In this document: positions 1,762 to 61,716 of the stretch, in pieces
Numbering within the stretch: the stretch's first letter is position 1
Layout of the letters: the number at the start of each line of letters is the position of its first letter
Assembly (NCBI GenBank): GCA_000004695.1
Contig: CM000155.2
Coordinates: forward strand, 2,624,001-2,688,000
Length of the DNA stretch: 64,000 bases
Reading direction: 5' to 3'
Source of the DNA: Dictyostelium discoideum
Lineage: Eukaryota
Translations under genes and position numbers: made by a program
Notes under the pieces: generated by a model
The model's input: the letters and a program-made list of their open reading frames with translations, nothing else
What the model was told of the DNA's origin: nothing
Databases searched by the model: none

Positions 1762-1834
1762 TGGAGAAGAAGGGTATCGATCCCTTTACCTCTCGCATGC
1801 TAAGCGAGCGCTCTACCATCTGAGCTACATCCCC
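1762..1834 (-). tRNA. tRNA-Ala (anticodon AGC), second copy
   Basis: The 73-nt sequence is essentially identical to the copy at 351-423, and about 50 bp of 3' flank is also similar. This is a tandem duplication with about 1.4 kb spacing. Confidence 0.9.
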
Positions 1835-29193: not shown

Positions 29194-30513
29194 ATGAAGA
29201 ATATGTTAAATATAATTTTAACATTGACAATAATTTTTATAGGATTAATTAAAATTTCAATATCAAGTGATAGTGGATCATCAGAAAATGGTATTTATTT
29301 TTATACATATGATACAATTTGCGAATTTACAAATTCTATAAGAGATGACGATCAGTATGAATTATATTATGTACAAGCACCATTGATGTATGCAATTTAT
29401 GGTGATCTTTTCGAAAAGATTAATGCTTATCATAGTGGTGTTGGATTTTATAATTTAAATGGTGGGCCAAATATATCAATAGATTATTTCGCAGGTCCAA
29501 CCCTAGAGGATGCATTAATACCACAGAATATTACAAAAGATTCACAAGGAAATTATAATTTAACATGGAATACTTATGGATTAATAGAAGTTACCAATTA
29601 TATTAATGAAACTTATTGGAGTAAAAGAGAATTGATTATGTATGGACTTACAGGCTTACAAGTCAAACAGTATTTAAGTTGGGCTCCAATATATAACCAA
29701 ACTCATCCAGTTTATAATTTATTTAGTATTGCATCAGCTGATGCCAGTGGTAGTGGTGATAATGGTTATTTAGAAACAATATTACATAATTTAGGTATTG
29801 GTGGTGGTGGTGGTGGTAGTGGTAGTGAAAATTTAATAGTTTATCAAAATAGTAGTACTTGTGATGATTTCGTCTGGGCAAGTTTTAATACTATTTATCA
29901 ATTAGGTGGTACTTTAGTTGGTATGCAAAGTAATCCTCCAAAAGATCAAATAACATTATTTACAACTGATGAACCAACTATTGTGGATTATAATAATATT
30001 ACACAAAGGAATCAATTGGCAAGCTTTTATATTAATTTAATGGGTATTGCAAATAAGAATGAAAGTGCTCTTCAAATATTCCAAGAATTAATATCATTAT
30101 TTAATGGTACATTCTATTGTTATATAGATGGTGTTTATTATGAATTACATTTATCCAAACCAACACCAATTTCATTTACATATCAACCATCACCAATGCC
30201 AACAGGTCAAAGAAATTCAAATTCTATAGAAACACTTAATAATTGTTATTCGAAATCTTCAACTGATAATCAATCATTTTTCAATAGATTTTCAAAAATT
30301 CAAATCATTTTCATATCTATAGCTATTGGATTTGGTGTTGTAATAATATTATACATATCAATTGGTATTATGGTTAATAAGTCTAGAGGTAAATCTGGTA
30401 CAAACTTAATTCCAAATAAAAAATTATGGACTTCCATTGGTTCTAAATTTAAAAGAGATAATAATAAAAATAATTATAAACCATTGTTATATAATGAAAA
30501 TACAATTCAATAA
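29194..30513 (+). CDS. Hypothetical type I membrane glycoprotein (signal peptide, large N-glycosylated ectodomain, a single C-terminal transmembrane helix)
   Basis: It is a 439-aa single ORF beginning MKNMLNIILTLTIIFIGLIKISIS. It has many NxS/T sites and a Gly-rich tract, a transmembrane segment IQIIFISIAIGFGVVIILYISIGIMV, and a basic tail. Confidence 0.55.
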   Translation: MKNMLNIILTLTIIFIGLIKISISSDSGSSENGIYFYTYDTICEFTNSIRDDDQYELYYVQAPLMYAIYGDLFEKINAYHSGVGFYNLNGGPNISIDYFAGPTLEDALIPQNITKDSQGNYNLTWNTYGLIEVTNYINETYWSKRELIMYGLTGLQVKQYLSWAPIYNQTHPVYNLFSIASADASGSGDNGYLETILHNLGIGGGGGGSGSENLIVYQNSSTCDDFVWASFNTIYQLGGTLVGMQSNPPKDQITLFTTDEPTIVDYNNITQRNQLASFYINLMGIANKNESALQIFQELISLFNGTFYCYIDGVYYELHLSKPTPISFTYQPSPMPTGQRNSNSIETLNNCYSKSSTDNQSFFNRFSKIQIIFISIAIGFGVVIILYISIGIMVNKSRGKSGTNLIPNKKLWTSIGSKFKRDNNKNNYKPLLYNENTIQ

Positions 30514-30606: not shown

Positions 30607-34323
<3,717 letters not shown>

Positions 34324-34438
34324 ATTATTAATGTATATGTAAATAAATATATATAAATATATATCCTATTACATATACGAATATATGTAATATTAATTTA
34401 TTTATTTGTAATTATTATTTTTTGATTTTAACAATAAT

Positions 34439-34477
<39 letters not shown>

Positions 34478-34869
34478 AAAAAAAAACTTCCAAATTTAAA
34501 TTTTTTGGAGGGAAAATAATTATTTATTTTTGGAAAAAAAAAAAAAAAAAAATTAATTATAAATCATTAAGAACATTTCTTAGACTTTAAATTCTTATGG
34601 AAATTATTTATTATTAAATATCTTGATTAAATTTATTTTAAAAAAAAAAAAAAAAAAAAAATAGATAGATATCTTTAGAGGCCACTAAAAAAAAAAGTAA
34701 ATATTTTCGGAGGTCATATAAAAAAAAAAAAAAAAATTTAAAACCCAAATTATTATAATATTACTACAAAAATTTTAATTTACTTCCTCTTGTTCTTTTA
34801 TTTATAAATTTAACTAAAAAAATAACAAAAAAAAGGTTTATCCAAATTTTTTTTTTTTTTTTAATTTTT

Positions 34870-36323
34870 TCACTTCCATTTAGATATTTGAACCAATCTA
34901 TTTATTAATCTTAAATATTGTAAATCTTTTTCTAAATCTTTTCTTATTTCTAAATCATGATAATTCATTATTTTAAAAACATTACATGGTTGAACTAAAA
35001 TATATATATATATATAATTAGAATATTGATATCTTTTAATTTGAAATAATTATAATTATTATACATACCAGGTAATTCATAATTAGAAGTGACTAAACCT
35101 GCATATTCGGATGTTGAAACTTGATCAGAAAAAGTGATAGCTAAAATGGGAACAATACCCAAAGCAATTGATTCTTTCATTCTTTTTTCCATTTTTCTCA
35201 TTGTTTCAACACTGGTGAAACTTTTTATTGATACAACAAATAAGAATACATTAACTGAAAATTCTGGTTTAGGAATACTGCCAATATTAAATTTTTCATT
35301 AATTGCTAAATTATTATAAACTCTACCCTGAACTTTATATTTTAATTCTATATCACTATCACATAATCCCCACTATTTATAAAAAAAAAAAAAACCCATT
35401 GATTAGTTTTATTATAATTAAATAATTAAACAATTATAATAATAATTAACTTACAGTATCTACGAATGAAATATCAAAACCACTTAAAAATGAATTTGAA
35501 AATGGATCATTTGAATAATTTGAATCGATAATACTTTTAATTGATCTATAAGTGATACGATTAGTTGAGAAATAAGTGCTACCACCATGTTCTTCAGAGA
35601 AATTTTGTTGAATTGTAGAAGATAAATTGAAAAGATTAATTAAACCCATAATTAAAGAAGTTTTACCTGAAGAAGCACAACCTTCCAAACCAATGGTTAA
35701 ACGTTTATTTGGTTTTAAATCACCTAAATACCAACTGATATTTGGATACATATTACTGAAATAATTAACACCAATATCCAAAGTAAATTGTACATTTATA
35801 TTAAACATTGGCTGAAATGAACAACCTAAATTTCGTTGAAATTCATTAAAAGTTATTAATTGTTTATAATATGTACCTGTTGTTGAAGTTGTTGATGCAA
35901 TGATTGCTGCTGCTGCTGCTGATGTTATTGATGATGATGATGATGATGTTGTTGTTGTTGTAGTCATTGTTGAAGTATTTGTAATTGATGGATGAAGACT
36001 TAGTGTATTAGGTATTTCAATTGATTGAGAACCATAAAATTTATTTGTAAATATAATTTTCGTACCTTTTACAACATTATTTTGAATATCTTTTGGTGAA
36101 ACTATAACCATAATCTCCAAATTATCCTTAATTGGTGATAATGTTTGACTTGAAATTAAAAATGCTTCAATTCTAATTGGTAAATTATAAACTTCTCTAA
36201 AATGAATTTTAAATTGATAAAGTTTATTATTCTCCTGATGATTTGTTAATGAAATATTTGAATTAGAAGAGGATGATATCGGTATTGGTTGTGGTAATAT
36301 ATTTAAACTATTACTATTATTAC

Positions 36324-36380
<57 letters not shown>

Positions 36381-37407
36381 TAATACTATTATTATTTGTA
36401 CATTTTGTATTTTTATTATTTAAATTTGCTGATAATAATTCATTTGAAAAATTATTAAATGGTTTAATATCTTTACTTGAAATATTTTCATTTTCTTCTT
36501 TATTTTCTTCTTTATTTTCTTCTTTATTTTCTTCATTTTCTTCATCATCAGTATCTTCATCATTATCATTATCATTATTATTATTACTATTAATTAATAC
36601 ATTTTGATTTATTGAATAAATTGTTTTTAAAGTTGATTTTATATTATCAATAATATCATTTTTAAATGAGAGGGTAGTTTCTTTAAAAGGTTCATTATTA
36701 TTTTTATCTTTAATAATATTTAAAAGTTGATAATTATCTTTAAGTATTGATAAATGTTGTTTATTTGATTGATTATAAATTTGATCGATTGAGTAGTCTG
36801 TTATTTTAAAGATTGGTGGTATTGTTGGAGGTGATTGAGTGGTTGAATGTTTGGTAATGAGTGAATTGATTAATTGAACTTTATTATCTAATAAAGATTT
36901 GGTTTTTAAATATAGTTCTTCATTATCTGTAAATAGGGTTTCTAAAGTTCTTTTAATATCAAGCTCTAAAATTTGTAAAATTTGATGTAACTGTTTGAAT
37001 TTATCCGATAATTGATTCATATTACTTTGATGATTTAATTTAATTTTTTGGAATTGTTGTTCAACAATTTGTATTTTTTTTTTACTTTTTTCTTTAAATC
37101 TTTGAGATTTGTTATAAGTTTCATTTAAATCTTTTAATGTATTTTGTATCATTGATTTTGAAATTAATGAAAATGAGTGACCTTTATGTCCAATACTACA
37201 GATACAAACTAAACATACAGGAATTTTACAATCTTCACAAAAACTACAAATTTCACTATCACTATGTTCAAAACATTTTATATCAAATATTGTTGTTGGT
37301 ATTATTGTTGTTGTTGTGGTTGATGATGATGTTGTTGTAGTGGTAGTTGTCATCGTTTGTAATGGTGATTTTTGTGAATCATTTTCCATTATATTTTTAA
37401 AAACCAA
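34870..37407 (-). CDS. B-box zinc finger / coiled-coil protein with a C-terminal P-loop NTPase (GTPase-like) domain, three exons
   Basis: The exons are 35455-37407 (B-box-like CFEHSDSEICSFCEDCKIPVCLVCICSIGHKGH, a long coiled coil, a polyN and acidic linker, and a Walker A motif GLEGCASSGKTSL), 35069-35372 (WGLCDSDIELKY..MRKMEKRMKESIALGIVPILAITFSDQVS) and 34870-34994 (..DLEIRKDLEKDLQYLRLINRLVQISKWK, then stop). All junctions are canonical and in frame, giving about 793 aa. Confidence 0.65.
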
Positions 37408-37842
37408 CTTTTGTTAATATATATATATAGATATTTTGTTTTGTTTTGTTTTGTTTATTATTAAATTTTTGTTGTGTTTTATTTTTTTTTTTTTTTTTTT
37501 TTTTTTTTCAACTCTTGTGTTGGCGGTTTGATGACATATTTTTTTATTTTTTTTTATTTTTTTTTTTTTTTTTAATTTTTTTTTTTTTTATTATTTTTTT
37601 TATTATTTTTTTTTTTTAGTTTTTTTTTTTCCTCTTTACATTTTTACATCTTTCAAGACAGTGTTGTTTTTTTTACTTTTTTTTTTTTTTTTTTTTTTAT
37701 ATATATATTAATAAATATGATTATGGTGATTGTGATTGACAAGCACCAAATAATTTCCCAAATTATTTATCTTGTGTTTTTTTAAAAAAGTAATAATTTA
37801 TTTATTTTTATTTATTTATTTATTTTCTTATTTTTTTCTTAT

Positions 37843-40745
37843 TTAGGCATTTGTTGTGTTATTAGTATTATTAATTGAGAAAGTTAATAAAGTTTTCATT
37901 GAATTTAAATATTCTTGTAATTCAGTGACTGATTTAATTGAATTTTCAGAAACATTTTTGGCAATTGATTGAGTATTTAAAGTTTCAAGAATAGTTGATT
38001 TGTTATTATCATCTTCAGTTAAAGATAATTTTGATAATGATTTTTCATTAATAATATTTGATAAATTTAAAGAATCATCAGAAAGTTTTTTAACTAATGT
38101 TTCTAAATCTGTGCGAATAGTAGTATGATATTCTTCTTTCTTCTTTGCTCTTTTACCTGGTAATGCAGAGTTCACTAATAATGCTATGAATGAGAACCAA
38201 GTGATTGGTTCAATAAAACTTGATACAACCATACGACTTGATCTAGATAAACTATTCAAACTATTACCTAAAACAACAGATTCTCTAATATTATCACTTA
38301 AAACTTTAACAATTTCAGTAATTTCATTATTAATTAATTCTAATAATTCTTTAACTTGTTTTAATTTCTCTTCATTAACTAAATATTTTATAAAAAATAA
38401 TAAAAATGAATTAATAATTATAAAAATTTTAATAATGATAATAATAATAATAATTTAAATACATTACATTCTTTTAATAAATTTAAAATTAAATTTAATA
38501 ATTTAAAATTATTTAAAGTTGAAATACGAGTTAAATTATCAATTTTATGAGAATTGATAGAATTTAATTTAGTTGTAGTTGATTCAAGTGAAATTAATAA
38601 TTGATTAAATTGATTTAAATCAATTGGTGATTGAGTTGAAATTAAATATAGAATATTTAAAATTTGTCTACGATAGGTTAATTGTAAAAGAAGAGTTGAT
38701 TTCTCTGTATTTTCAAAATAGAGTGAAGTGATACCTTGAATTTGATTTTCAACTTGTTTGATAGAGTCGGAATTAGAGGTGGTAGTTGGATTAAATTTAT
38801 CAAAGATAGTATTATCATGATTGAATGAAAGGGCATTCAATACTTCATTTGAACAATCGAAATTAATTGGATCAGTACTTGAGATTTGAGATTTACAAAT
38901 TTCAACGAATTGAGAGGCAGTGAAATTAGCATTTGGTAATTTTTTAAAACGAATTAACATGAAATTAAATAATTGTCTTTCAGTTTCGTAAACTGATTTT
39001 TGGAAAGAGTTGGCAACTTTAACTTGGAATTTTTGAATCTCTGTGATTTTACTGTAACAACCATTTTGATAACAAGCAGCAACATAATCAGCTGTCGATT
39101 CATTTTCATTGTAGAATTTAGCAGACTTTTCAAAAGCGTTAATTGCATTGGAGAAACAAGTTGGTTCACGAATAAATTGATCAGCGACTAAATGACCGAG
39201 TGTATCATATTGAATATTTTTAATGTTTAAAATTTTGAAATGATTACTTGCCAATTGATGTGCGCCCAATTCAAAGTATAATGAAAGAAGGTAAAGATTG
39301 AATTGATAGTTTTTGGTTGAAATGGAATGAGCAAACTCCAAGATAGCGGCACTTTCTAAAAGTAATGAAACTTGTTTGGTTTTTTCATATTGATCCATTA
39401 AGAGGAAATGACAAATTAAAATTAAATCATCACCTGGATAACGTTCAGATTCAATTGCCAATGGGAATTTCTTTGTATTGTATTGATATTCTTCAAGGAT
39501 TTCTTTAATGATTTTGATTGATTCTTCAATACTCATTTCCAATTGTAAACCTAAAACTCTGGATAACTTGTGATAATTTGAAAGTTGGCTAATATGATTA
39601 GCTTCATCTTTATCCAATGATACTAATTTATAAATACGATCCATAATTTCTTTACGTTGTTCAATGGATTTTTTAGTTTCAATAAATTGTAAATATTTCT
39701 TTAAATCTGAATAGAGTACTGGTTTTGTACCAAATTTAGTGAAATAATTTAAAATTAACTCTATGAATTTATTAAAGACTGGACCATCGATGTTTGCAGC
39801 AGGATTACCATTGGCGGTGGTGGTAGTTGTCAATAATCTATAGTAAATTTCAATCTCTGCTAATAATGGACCACGTAATAAATGTTTACTGGTTTGTTGT
39901 GATTGAATATTTTGAATGAATTGTTTGGCATCGTCAATCTTTGAGATATCATTGAGTGACCAAATGTTATCGAAATAACCCATATAGCATGACCATTCAT
40001 CCGGTTCATATTTTGTAAGGATTTCAGAGTAGTTATTGGCTGCTTCTTGATGATTACCCAACTTTTGATTAAGGTCACCTAAAATCTTTAAACGTTCAGT
40101 TGCAACATTATAAAGTTCACCCAATTTGCCTTTAATAAGGTTAAGATGTTCACTGGTTTTACCTTGAATATCCAATACGGTTTCATACATATAAAGATGT
40201 TCACTTGTTTTGATTTTACCTTCTTCTACTAATTTCTCTGCTAACTTTTGTGATAAACCAATAAAGAGTTGGTTTGAAGGGTTGTCATGAACCATCGATA
40301 AAATGGTCATTAAATACCAAAGACTATGTTGATGAGATGGGAAATTCTTTTGTAAATCTAGTATGACTTGTTGTTGTTGTTTATAATCTCTAACCTTTGC
40401 ATATGCTAAAAATAAACCTTCTGCTAGATTTTCGTTCTTTGGATAGGCTTTAACTGATGCTTCGTAAACTTTGGTCATTTTGTATCCTTGTTGAACTGAT
40501 TTATAAAAGTAATTTAAATTTGATAATAAAGTTTCATTATAGTGTCCAATGAATGCAACTTCATCTGCACATTTAATTGCCTCTTCATTTTCACCCAATT
40601 TAATTAATGTAATTGCTTTTAAAACTTTGACAATATTTGTATTTTCATCCTTCTTTTTTGTTAAAAGTGCATTACATAATTTTAATGATTGTTTATTATT
40701 ACCAGAATCTAAAGCTGAATAAATTCCACTTAATTTATTACTCAT
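37843..40745 (-). CDS. naa25: N-alpha-acetyltransferase 25, the NatB auxiliary subunit (MDM20 homologue); TPR-rich; two exons
   Basis: The exons are 38468-40745 (GTAATG donor, phase 1) and 37843-38378, giving about 937 aa. The N-terminus IYSALDSGNNKQSLKLCNALLTKKKD..VLKAITLIKLGENEEA aligns with human NAA25 IYDYLDNGNNKMAIQQADKLLKKHKD..VLKAIGLQRTGKQEEA. Similarity continues through the TPR region. Confidence 0.8.
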
Positions 40746-54242: not shown

Positions 54243-56181
<1,939 letters not shown>

Positions 56182-60278: not shown

Positions 60279-61396
60279 ATGAGCGAAACCACTGCAACCT
60301 CAACTACAACAACAAAAACAACAGATAAAGACAATGTAAATAATAATAATAATAATGAAAATAAAGAAGAAAAACAACCAATTAATATTATAGTTTTAGG
60401 TATGGCCGGTAGTGGTAAAACTACTTTATTACAAGTAAGTTTGAATTATATTTCTTTTTTTTTATATGCCGTATACATACCACACACAAATATAATAAGA
60501 ATAAAAAACTTATTATTTTATTTTTTTTTAAAAAAAAAGAGAATTAGAGCACATTTATATGAAAATAAAATACCAGGATATATTATAAATTTAGATCCAG
60601 CTGTTAGTAAATTACCATATACACCAAATATTGATATTAGAGATACAGTGAATTATAAAGAAGTTATGAAACAATTTAATTTAGGACCAAATGGGGGTAT
60701 TGTTACATCATTGAATTTATTTAGTACTAAATTCGATAAGGTATTGGAGATTGTTGAAAAGAGATCATCATCATTGGACTACATTATATTGGATACACCA
60801 GGACAAATCGAAGTATTCACATGGAGTGCATCAGGTACTATCATCACTGAATTGATGGCATCATCATTTCCAACTGTATTGGTATACGTTGTCGATACAC
60901 CACGTACCGTTGATCCTACTACCTTCATGTCCAATATGTTGTATGCCTGTAGTATAATGTACAAGAGTAAGCTACCAATGGTTGTGGCATTCAATAAGAT
61001 CGATATCACCAATCATCGTTTTGCAGAGGAGTGGATGTCTGATTTTGACTCTTTTCAAGACGCCCTCACCAACGATCCAACTTATATGGGCAATTTAACA
61101 AGATCACTTTCATTGGTTTTAGAAGAATTTTATTCAACACTTCAAAGTGTTGGTGTATCAGCTGTTGATGGTTCTGGTATCGATGAATTCTTTGAAAAGA
61201 TTGGTTTGGCCGCTCAAGATTATCATAAATACTATAAGGCTGACCTTGAAAAAATTAAAAAACAAAAATCTGATAAAGAACAAGCTGAAGCAAATAAAAA
61301 TTGGGAAAAATTAAAAAGAGATTTAGAAGAATCAAAAGGTGCAAAAGTTGAATATGATTTTAAAAGTATGTTTATTAAAAATTTAAATATATATGT

Positions 61397-61440
<44 letters not shown>

Positions 61441-61716
61441 ATAATAATAATAATACATAATTATTAATAATTATTTTATTTAATTTTTAATTTTTTTTTT
61501 TTATTTTAATCCAGAGGAAAAGAAAAGAGAAAACCAAGAAAAAACTAAAAATATTTATGATGATGAAGAGGATGATTATAGAGATGATCGTGATATGGAA
61601 GATTCAGGTGAATATGAAAGTTATGAAGATGAACAAGAAGAAGGTGATTATGAAAATGAAGAAGAAAGATTAGAAGATCAACGTGCATATGAATCTTTAA
61701 TGAGTTCAATTAAAAA

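Follow-up and report, generated by a model that had tools for sequence, protein, structure and literature searches.

The gene described here lies on the minus strand of a 64-kb window of the Dictyostelium discoideum genome (64,000 nt of contig CM000155.2, positions 2,624,001 to 2,688,000) and encodes a predicted protein of 787 amino acids (aa), in which a candidate B-box type 2 zinc finger and a predicted coiled coil are joined, through a disordered linker and a beta-rich domain, to a C-terminal G domain with the TRAFAC GTPase fold. The window is AT-rich (GC of approximately 0.13 to 0.37 per kb) and contains poly-Asn coding tracts, and the nearest relatives of the proteins encoded in it are from Dictyostelium. 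Gene structure, domain order, family membership, the fold of the G domain, and the conservation of its motifs were all established computationally. An earlier reading of this DNA, made from its letters alone (the sequence-only reading), had proposed a TRIM-like module fused to a GTPase-like domain at this position. The features of the gene, with the evidence by which they were placed, are as follows.

34870-37389, minus strand: complete coding sequence from ATG to stop, three exons, 787 aa (AG-acceptor enumeration and translation)
37389-35455, minus strand: exon 1, 1,935 nt
35373-35454, minus strand: intron 1, GTAAGT..AG, 82 nt, GC 0.11
35372-35069, minus strand: exon 2
34995-35068, minus strand: intron 2, GTATGT..AG, 74 nt, GC 0.09
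34994-34870, minus strand: exon 3, stop included
37285-37389, minus strand: Thr/Ser-rich low-complexity N-terminal tail, aa 1-35 (direct reading)
37168-37284, minus strand: candidate type 2 B-box (zinc finger), aa 36-74 (Pfam, phmmer against the PDB, ligand pattern)
36844-37167, minus strand: coiled-coil helix region, aa 75-182 (AlphaFold2 [AF2] helices, heptad periodicity)
36583-36843, minus strand: Pro-rich break (aa 183-193) and two further helices (aa 201-230 and 244-269)
36226-36582, minus strand: disordered Asn/Asp/Glu-rich linker with a poly-Asn run, aa 270-388 (predicted local distance difference test score [pLDDT] 23-38)
35992-36225, minus strand: beta-rich domain, first half, aa 389-466 (AF2 strands, BLASTP, profile)
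35875-35991, minus strand: Thr/Ser/Ala-rich low-complexity insert in the beta-rich domain, aa 467-505 (pLDDT < 50)
35710-35874, minus strand: beta-rich domain, second half, and connecting helix, aa 506-560 (AF2, family alignment)
34873-35709, minus strand: G domain, TRAFAC GTPase fold, aa 561-787, spanning both introns
35659-35682, minus strand: G1/Walker A, GCASSGKT, aa 570-577 (G570, G575, and K576 invariant in 19 family members)
35563-35565, minus strand: candidate G2 (switch I) threonine, T609 (invariant alignment column)
35367-35460, minus strand: G3/Walker B, D644-T645 and W646-G647, interrupted by intron 1 (D644 and G647 invariant)
35124-35135, minus strand: G4-like motif TFSD, aa 725-728, after the strand 721-725 (family alignment)
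34924-34965, minus strand: C-terminal signature NYhdleiRkdleKD, aa 757-770, at the G5 position/start of the last helix

The open reading frame (ORF) called mechanically in this region (37407..35446, minus strand) begins at a bacterial-style TTG at 37407 and ends in ...FVDTVS and a stop right at the GTAAGT of intron 1, and the first ATG is at 37389. The sequence-only reading had assigned the span 34870-37407, of which the 3' end was exact and the 5' end was this TTG; its residue numbers were 6 too high. When the AG acceptors were enumerated, a single combination left the frame open to 787 aa. A hidden Markov model (HMM) was built from 15 paralogues, with the studied gene and its D. citrinum orthologue left out (the paralogue-only profile), and exons 1, 2, and 3 matched successive, nonoverlapping segments of it (90-202, 203-303, and 306-345), with an E value of 4e-17 for exon 2 against segment 203-303. 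The invariant G3 motif DxWG is cut by intron 1 between DT and WG and is intact only after splicing. In D. citrinum, the annotated orthologue (KAN0022118.1) aligns collinearly along the full 787 residues (81% identity). The folded parts are 82 to 90% identical to it with at most one gap column each, the linkers are 41 to 69% identical with many indels, a pattern that purifying selection on each of the modules could produce. Homology thus supports the three-exon splice model, including the earlier proposal that a conserved domain continues over two further exons.

We also considered whether the three-exon fusion is an artefact of the gene model that brings together exons from separate genes. The model is known from DNA and homology, an exact look-up of the 787-aa sequence in the protein collection returned no record, and the collection holds single-exon-like fragments, namely, P0012 (32 aa), which is identical to exon 3, and P0006 (68 aa), which is 85% identical to part of exon 2. 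These short entries probably arose when ORFs on Dictyostelium contigs were called in prokaryote style. Against an artefact, the B-box, the Walker A motif, and the Asp-Thr that forms the first half of G3 all lie inside the uninterrupted exon 1, and because they share this exon, the fused architecture is independent of the splice model. The successive exon matches to the paralogue-only profile, the dependence of DxWG on removal of intron 1, the short GT..AG introns with 9 to 11% GC (compared with 19 to 28% in the exons), and the collinear D. citrinum annotation argue in the same direction, and we give an artefact next to no credence. The fusion of a B-box and coiled coil to a C-terminal P-loop domain, as first proposed, was borne out by this one 1,935-nt exon.

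The pattern C39-x2-H42-x8-C51-x2-C54-x4-C59-x2-C62-x5-H68-x2-H71 provides all eight B-box2 ligand positions at B-box2 spacing and has a single occurrence in the six-frame translation of the window. The B-box is 87% identical to that of the D. citrinum orthologue, in which every ligand is kept. When the PDB was searched with phmmer, the top match, Asn-rich low-complexity matches aside, was the B-box/coiled coil of TRIM5 (E value of 0.008, residues 39-180). The other best matches were likewise all TRIM chains (TRIM72, TRIM63, TRIM54, TRIM39, TRIM3, MID1, and KAP1), and several of the TRIM alignments covered the B-box and the coiled coil jointly. Residues 75-182 align with the coiled coils of TRIM5 and TRIM72 directly after the B-box, so that the protein resembles the scaffold of RING-less TRIM-like proteins, with B-box2 ligands followed by a long helix, as in the PDB entries of TRIM5 (5w9a and 4tn3) and TRIM72. 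This similarity is sub-threshold (E values of 0.008 to 0.07).

Two of the results for this region weigh against the assignment: the Pfam model zf-B_box matched with an E value of 1.3e-4 and 22.5 bits, slightly below its 24.1-bit cut-off, and the AF2 model, built here on an alignment two sequences deep, had pLDDT values below 40 at the B-box. A profile of the two sequences, searched against the PDB, still placed TRIM5 and TRIM3 at the top, with E values of 0.07 to 0.2, and TRIM chains overall fell between 0.07 and 0.9. On such figures, the Cys/His cluster might be another small zinc finger and the helices a generic coiled coil, which would make the likeness to TRIMs superficial: the gathering score is missed, the profile matches to TRIM chains are modest, AF2 gives no confident fold there, and residues 29-268 found no match in a large protein database (a null to which no weight is given). 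However, the spacing of the eight ligands is that of B-box2, the helix begins a few residues after the last His in the manner of TRIMs, and the best PDB matches, Asn-rich low-complexity sequences aside, are all TRIM B-box or B-box/coiled-coil chains. We therefore consider a different zinc finger unlikely and take the evidence as consistent with a B-box below the curated threshold.

AF2 predicted helices at residues 78-152 and 157-182 (pLDDT of 60 to 73), 201-230, and 244-269. The heptad score, a crude and uncalibrated one, was strong at residues ~85 to 180, fell at the Pro-rich residues 183-193, and recovered partially at residues 197-266. The region of residues 183-269 aligns without gaps to the D. 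citrinum orthologue, at 85% identity, and by position the helices 201-230 and 244-269 may correspond to the helical L2 region of TRIMs. The sequence-only reading had given the coiled coil a length of ~200 aa. A coiled coil is predicted, but the helical part of ~190 aa is better described as a coiled coil of ~100 aa to which a further ~70 aa of helix are added.

The resemblance to TRIMs that had been proposed stands for the B-box2 ligands and the coiled coil, with zf-B_box sub-threshold, but does not extend to a RING, and the term TRIM-like covers the B-box-2/coiled-coil part only. Residues 1-35 contain no Cys or His, Pfam gave no RING match, and the D. citrinum orthologue shares the start MEN.... 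The closest architectural precedent is TRIM23/ARD1, which has the organization R-B1-B2-CC-ARF and alone among classical TRIMs ends in a GTPase (PMC2533329). The order of B-box, coiled coil, and G domain is the same in both proteins. TRIM23 has a RING, two B-boxes, and an ARF-family G domain, whereas the studied protein, which is RING-less, has a single B-box and a G domain of septin/GIMAP-like type, with a disordered linker of 120 aa and a beta-rich domain as further parts. The parallel in order (PMC2533329) would fit a true E3 ubiquitin ligase of the TRIM23/ARD1 type whose GTPase regulates the ligase activity. The RING-less N terminus argues against such an enzyme, as do the lack of any minus-strand ORF of at least 40 aa between the ATG and the neighbouring gene, the identical start of the D. 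citrinum orthologue, and the lack of a Pfam Arf match in a protein whose best profile matches are septins. An E3 ligase of this type is very improbable.

As had been noticed from the sequence, a poly-Asn/acidic linker follows the helices and precedes the Walker A motif. Compared with its D. citrinum counterpart, this linker (residues 270-388, ~120 aa) shows 67% identity and 23 gap columns. It is followed, ahead of the P-loop, by a beta-rich domain (residues 389-466 and 506-560) that the sequence-only reading had missed. Its first half has AF2 strands at residues 391-394, 405-413, 424-432, 444-449, and 453-458 (pLDDT of 65 to 90), gave a BLASTP E value of 9e-11 against the DDB_G0269482-type protein P0002, and matched positions 2-82 of the paralogue-only profile. 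The low-complexity insert that follows (residues 467-505) is lacking in all paralogues and is 41% identical to the D. citrinum orthologue, with indels. The second half has strands at residues 505-514, 529-534, and 542-548 and a helix at 551-558, and it can be aligned across the family. In total, the domain has approximately nine predicted strands and is common to the paralogues that carry a vWA (von Willebrand factor A) domain, and it had no sequence match in Pfam or the PDB.

The Walker A sequence GLEGCASSGKTSL is found at residues 567-579, after the linker as proposed, and contains the G1 motif. In addition to the invariant residues of G1 and G3, the 19-member alignment has invariant columns at G661 and P720. 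T609 sits in a low-confidence loop of the structural model, as expected for switch I, and its assignment to switch I, which rests on the position in the model, makes it a candidate. The residue following DxxG is Leu, not Gln. The invariant residues of the C-terminal signature are Y758 and D770; conservation reaches at least 90% for K769, and R764 is present in nearly all members. The protein ends ~20 residues past the last helix of the G domain, and the beta-rich domain precedes G1.

When the family profile was searched against the PDB, the G domains of septin-12, -3, and -9 were matched with E values of 2e-7 to 2e-6, aligned from G1 to the G4 strand, and IRG proteins followed at an E value of ~1e-4. 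An AlphaFold model on the family alignment had a pLDDT of 82.7 and a predicted template modelling score (pTM) of 0.81. In Foldseek, the matches of this predicted structure were TRAFAC GTPases only: Toc34 ranked first (E value of 6e-6), GIMAP7 and GIMAP2 were in the top ten, mixed with Cin4, EF-Tu, SelB, and Arl1, and a septin and IRGB10 came further down the list. By itself, the fold search, made with a predicted model, does not separate the septin/GIMAP/Toc34 group from other TRAFAC GTPases. The identity of the domain therefore comes from the septin matches of the family profile, the Foldseek matches, and the conservation of the motifs together: it is the G domain of an uncurated family that is nearest the septin/GIMAP/Toc34 group. 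The GTPase-like C terminus of the sequence-only reading is thus supported.

The likeness to the septin/GIMAP(AIG1)/Toc34-Toc159 group, referred to as paraseptins, extends to the G fold, a hydrophobic residue after DxxG, and a G4 motif starting with T or N. However, the studied protein does not reach the Pfam Septin and AIG1 models, has TFSD at G4 where septin has AKAD, and differs from the group in its C-terminal NY..R...KD signature and an obligatory N-terminal beta-rich domain. Neither the septin unique element nor the N-terminal polybasic region was seen in it. IFI44 and IFI44L, which are interferon-induced G-domain proteins, likewise carry GxxGxGKSS, THxD, and a C-terminal NY...KD-like motif, which we take as a lead only; IFI44 was not among the 28 phmmer matches to the studied protein.

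Other results count against a G domain with guanine specificity or against its placement among known GTPases. In TFSD, the T and D are kept and the Lys of the canonical [NT]KxD is missing. Most dictyostelid members have T[FH]xD at this position, and those of Pellita, Pelomyxa, and Acytostelium have N[FYM]xN. Because G4 is without Lys and part of the family has N-x-x-N, guanine specificity is uncertain; in the studied gene, it is plausible from the sequence. This split between groups hints at differing nucleotide specificity. Arginine fingers have been noted in paraseptin GTPases (10.1101/2024.03.25.586683), and a conserved one was not identified in the family alignment, where the Arg of "EGR" after switch II is not invariant. 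Pfam gave no Septin, AIG1, or IIGP match for the whole protein. The single sequence matched an NTPase profile only narrowly, its best curated Pfam match being MMR_HSR1 with an E value of 0.15. The C-terminal sequence alone returned nothing in NCBIfam and PDB searches, and PADLOC defence-protein models gave only noise at the level of the Walker A motif. Where scores are given, the 19 members listed at E values of up to 1 all stay below the curated Pfam GTPase cut-offs, the studied protein far below. The Septin model (PF00735, 26.2 bits) matched 8 of 19 relatives weakly, with 14.1 to 15.9 bits for the scanned full-length relatives.

These results could also be read as those of a degenerate P-loop domain, i.e., a pseudo-GTPase or a scaffold for ATP or another nucleotide that has no switch cycle and serves as a passive adaptor. 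The noncanonical TFSD would fit such a domain, as would the NFxN, NYxN, and NMxN of other members, which lack the guanine-specifying Asp, the subthreshold scores of all curated GTPase models, and weak P-loop-only matches to numerous ATPase families. Yet those ATPase matches span just 25 to 30 residues around Walker A, and the structures matched by fold belong to GTPases and not to ASCE ATPases. Furthermore, G1, the G2 Thr, and the DxxG of G3 do not vary in 19 members whose identity to the studied gene is only 17 to 34% (the 86% identical orthologue aside), and invariance in members so diverged is expected for an active nucleotide site. We regard a degenerate domain as improbable, but with a chance that has to be reckoned with.

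To define the family, a full HMMER scan of 1.84 billion representative proteins was performed, by which 28 relatives were found, and 19 of them were aligned. In phmmer, the D. discoideum vWA paralogues matched with an E value of 4e-44 and the Tieghemostelium relative with 1.5e-27, and the paralogue-only profile matched the studied gene at 5e-51 across the beta and G parts, with all invariant columns kept. The relatives come from D. discoideum (DDB_G0269482 and others), D. citrinum, D. dimigraforme, D. purpureum, Tieghemostelium, Cavenderia, Acytostelium, Synstelium, Pellita, and Pelomyxa. Every named one is amoebozoan (Dictyostelia, Pellita, and Pelomyxa) and is annotated as "hypothetical" or "VWFA domain-containing." As far as the searches show, the beta plus G family is so far found only in Amoebozoa, in agreement with the amoebozoan-specific family that had been anticipated, and it lacks a curated profile and a name. 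Since septins have been reported to be missing from Amoebozoa (10.1101/2024.03.25.586683), a septin-like family there is mildly notable. A word-indexed search of a 5.8-billion-protein database gave no match in any of three queries (C-terminal domain, family alignment, and N-terminal region); these nulls were given no weight because the 86% identical orthologue sits in the parent collection. No paper was found on the beta plus G family, and literature searches on the paralogue identifier and on a B-box plus GTPase in Dictyostelium gave nothing specific. Reviews on Dictyostelium mention a single TRIM, which is TRIM37-like, and a single GBP, but not the studied gene (PMC5758549).

The usual architecture of the family is a vWA domain, the beta-rich domain, the G domain, and a variable tail, as in the uncharacterised proteins DDB_G0269482/Q55DY0 ("VWFA domain-containing protein"), Tieghemostelium DLAC_07402, Cavenderia DFA_00464, and Pelomyxa Pelo_17473. 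The studied protein shares with these the homologous beta and G domains and the same invariant residues (E values of 4e-44 to 1e-5). It differs from them in starting with a B-box and coiled coil instead of a vWA domain, in having long low-complexity inserts, and in having none of the ubiquitin-like/PB1, zinc-ribbon, or kinase tails found in many of them. Five of the eight vWA-type relatives scanned at full length exceed the Pfam VWA cut-off (E values of 1e-8 to 2e-19), and there was no Pfam VWA match in the studied protein. Among the relatives, a B-box head is present only in the studied gene and its D. citrinum orthologue. The simplest reading of these sequences is that the vWA domain was swapped for a B-box/coiled coil on a constant beta plus G core in the D. 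discoideum lineage. It had been suggested that the fused form marks the family, and all of its named members are indeed amoebozoan, but its usual head is vWA, and the B-box/coiled coil was seen only in the studied gene and the D. citrinum orthologue.

Depending on the member, the variable tail gives a weak ubiquitin-like/PB1 signal, contains zinc ribbons, or has a kinase together with a second vWA. Six vWA-type members (P0005, P0002, P0004, P0008, P0010, and P0014) have a C-terminal domain of ~80 aa after a Gln/Pro/Ser-rich linker, which the studied gene is without, and the tail of P0005 gave weak ubiquitin-like/PB1 signals (TUG-UBL1, E value of 0.006; PB1, E value of 0.06). The non-dictyostelid members P0013 and P0019 are from Pellita and a metagenome, and P0018 is from Pelomyxa (1698 aa). 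These non-dictyostelid members end in arrays of zinc ribbons or carry a second vWA with a protein kinase domain (E value of 1e-11), so that one beta plus G core is seen with modular output tails.

The neighbouring genes and other features of the window are as follows.

30607-34323, minus strand: kinesin gene, motor domain E value of 3e-108, long poly-Asn tracts
38418-40745, minus strand: gene for the NatB MDM20 subunit, E value of 1e-94
29194-30513, plus strand: CLN5 homologue, E value of 7e-11
37843-38259, minus strand: 138-aa ORF without a Pfam match, same strand as the NatB-subunit ORF and directly downstream of it
351-423, 493-575, and 1762-1834, minus strand: tRNA cluster, two tRNA-Ala(AGC) and one tRNA-Leu(UAA)
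34430-34480, 34640-34740, and 37480-37700: A/T homopolymer runs of up to ~45 nt in both flanking intergenic regions
55409, minus strand: Walker A GPPGTGKT in ORF 54243-55436
60399, plus strand: Walker A GMAGSGKT in ORF 60279-61460

The flanking kinesin, NatB MDM20, and CLN5 genes have no functional link to the fusion gene. The 138-aa ORF may not be a separate gene but a further 3' exon of the NatB-subunit gene, and the two ORFs with Walker A motifs are probably unrelated P-loop genes. Neither tblastn nor a profile search found a second family member in the window, and a scan for bacterial promoters and terminators, which is irrelevant to a eukaryotic locus, gave no excess over shuffled sequences.

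Nucleotide-dependent dimerisation or polymerisation of G domains is established for septins, GIMAPs, and Toc34, and TRIM coiled coils are established antiparallel dimers. The best explanation of the gene, to which we give somewhat better than even chances, is that a RING-less TRIM-like self-association module is tethered to a beta plus septin/GIMAP/Toc34-like G module for nucleotide-gated assembly, and by analogy with these proteins, the product is likely to function as a self-assembling, nucleotide-gated scaffold. The long disordered linker would act as the tether between the B-box2/coiled-coil/helix module and the beta plus G module. The G domain would bind a nucleotide, probably GTP, given that G1 to G3 are all intact and that G4 retains its T and D. 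Hydrolysis may proceed in a cycle of nucleotide-dependent G-domain dimerisation instead of through a separate GTPase-activating protein, since a hydrophobic residue replaces the catalytic Gln after DxxG, as in the nearest structural relatives. The B-box and coiled coil would form a constitutive dimer that permits higher-order contacts, the antiparallel dimer and the B-box lattice being assumed by analogy with TRIM5 and TRIM72. Two G domains would be suspended on long flexible linkers, and nucleotide-dependent G-G contacts could join the dimers into oligomers or lattices, with the beta-rich domain as a candidate element for recognition of the target on which they form. A role such as cell-autonomous defence is at most suggested, by the parallels with animal TRIM, GIMAP, IRG, and GBP proteins and by the modular way in which the family has diversified.

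The gene combines known kinds of parts, a TRAFAC G domain and a B-box/coiled coil, and introduces no new principle. The exchange of heads on a constant beta plus G core is a pattern typical of sensor/assembly proteins in conflict or signalling systems. More speculatively, and with a small chance of being right, Amoebozoa may have evolved their own paraseptin-like GTPases as assembly switches, with heads and tails as interchangeable sensor and output modules. The studied gene would then be a convergent analogue, itself RING-less, of animal TRIMs and immune GTPases, and its product would form nucleotide-gated lattices on targets inside the cell, e.g., bacteria-containing vacuoles, and its animal analogues would be TRIM5, GBP, IRG, GIMAP, and IFI44. 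Dictyostelium is genetically tractable and a professional phagocyte, and a TRIM-like scaffold that gates a dimerising GTPase would be directly testable there. Even if the function proves mundane, the family would constitute a defined new GTPase subfamily, and the studied gene would have a corrected domain map.

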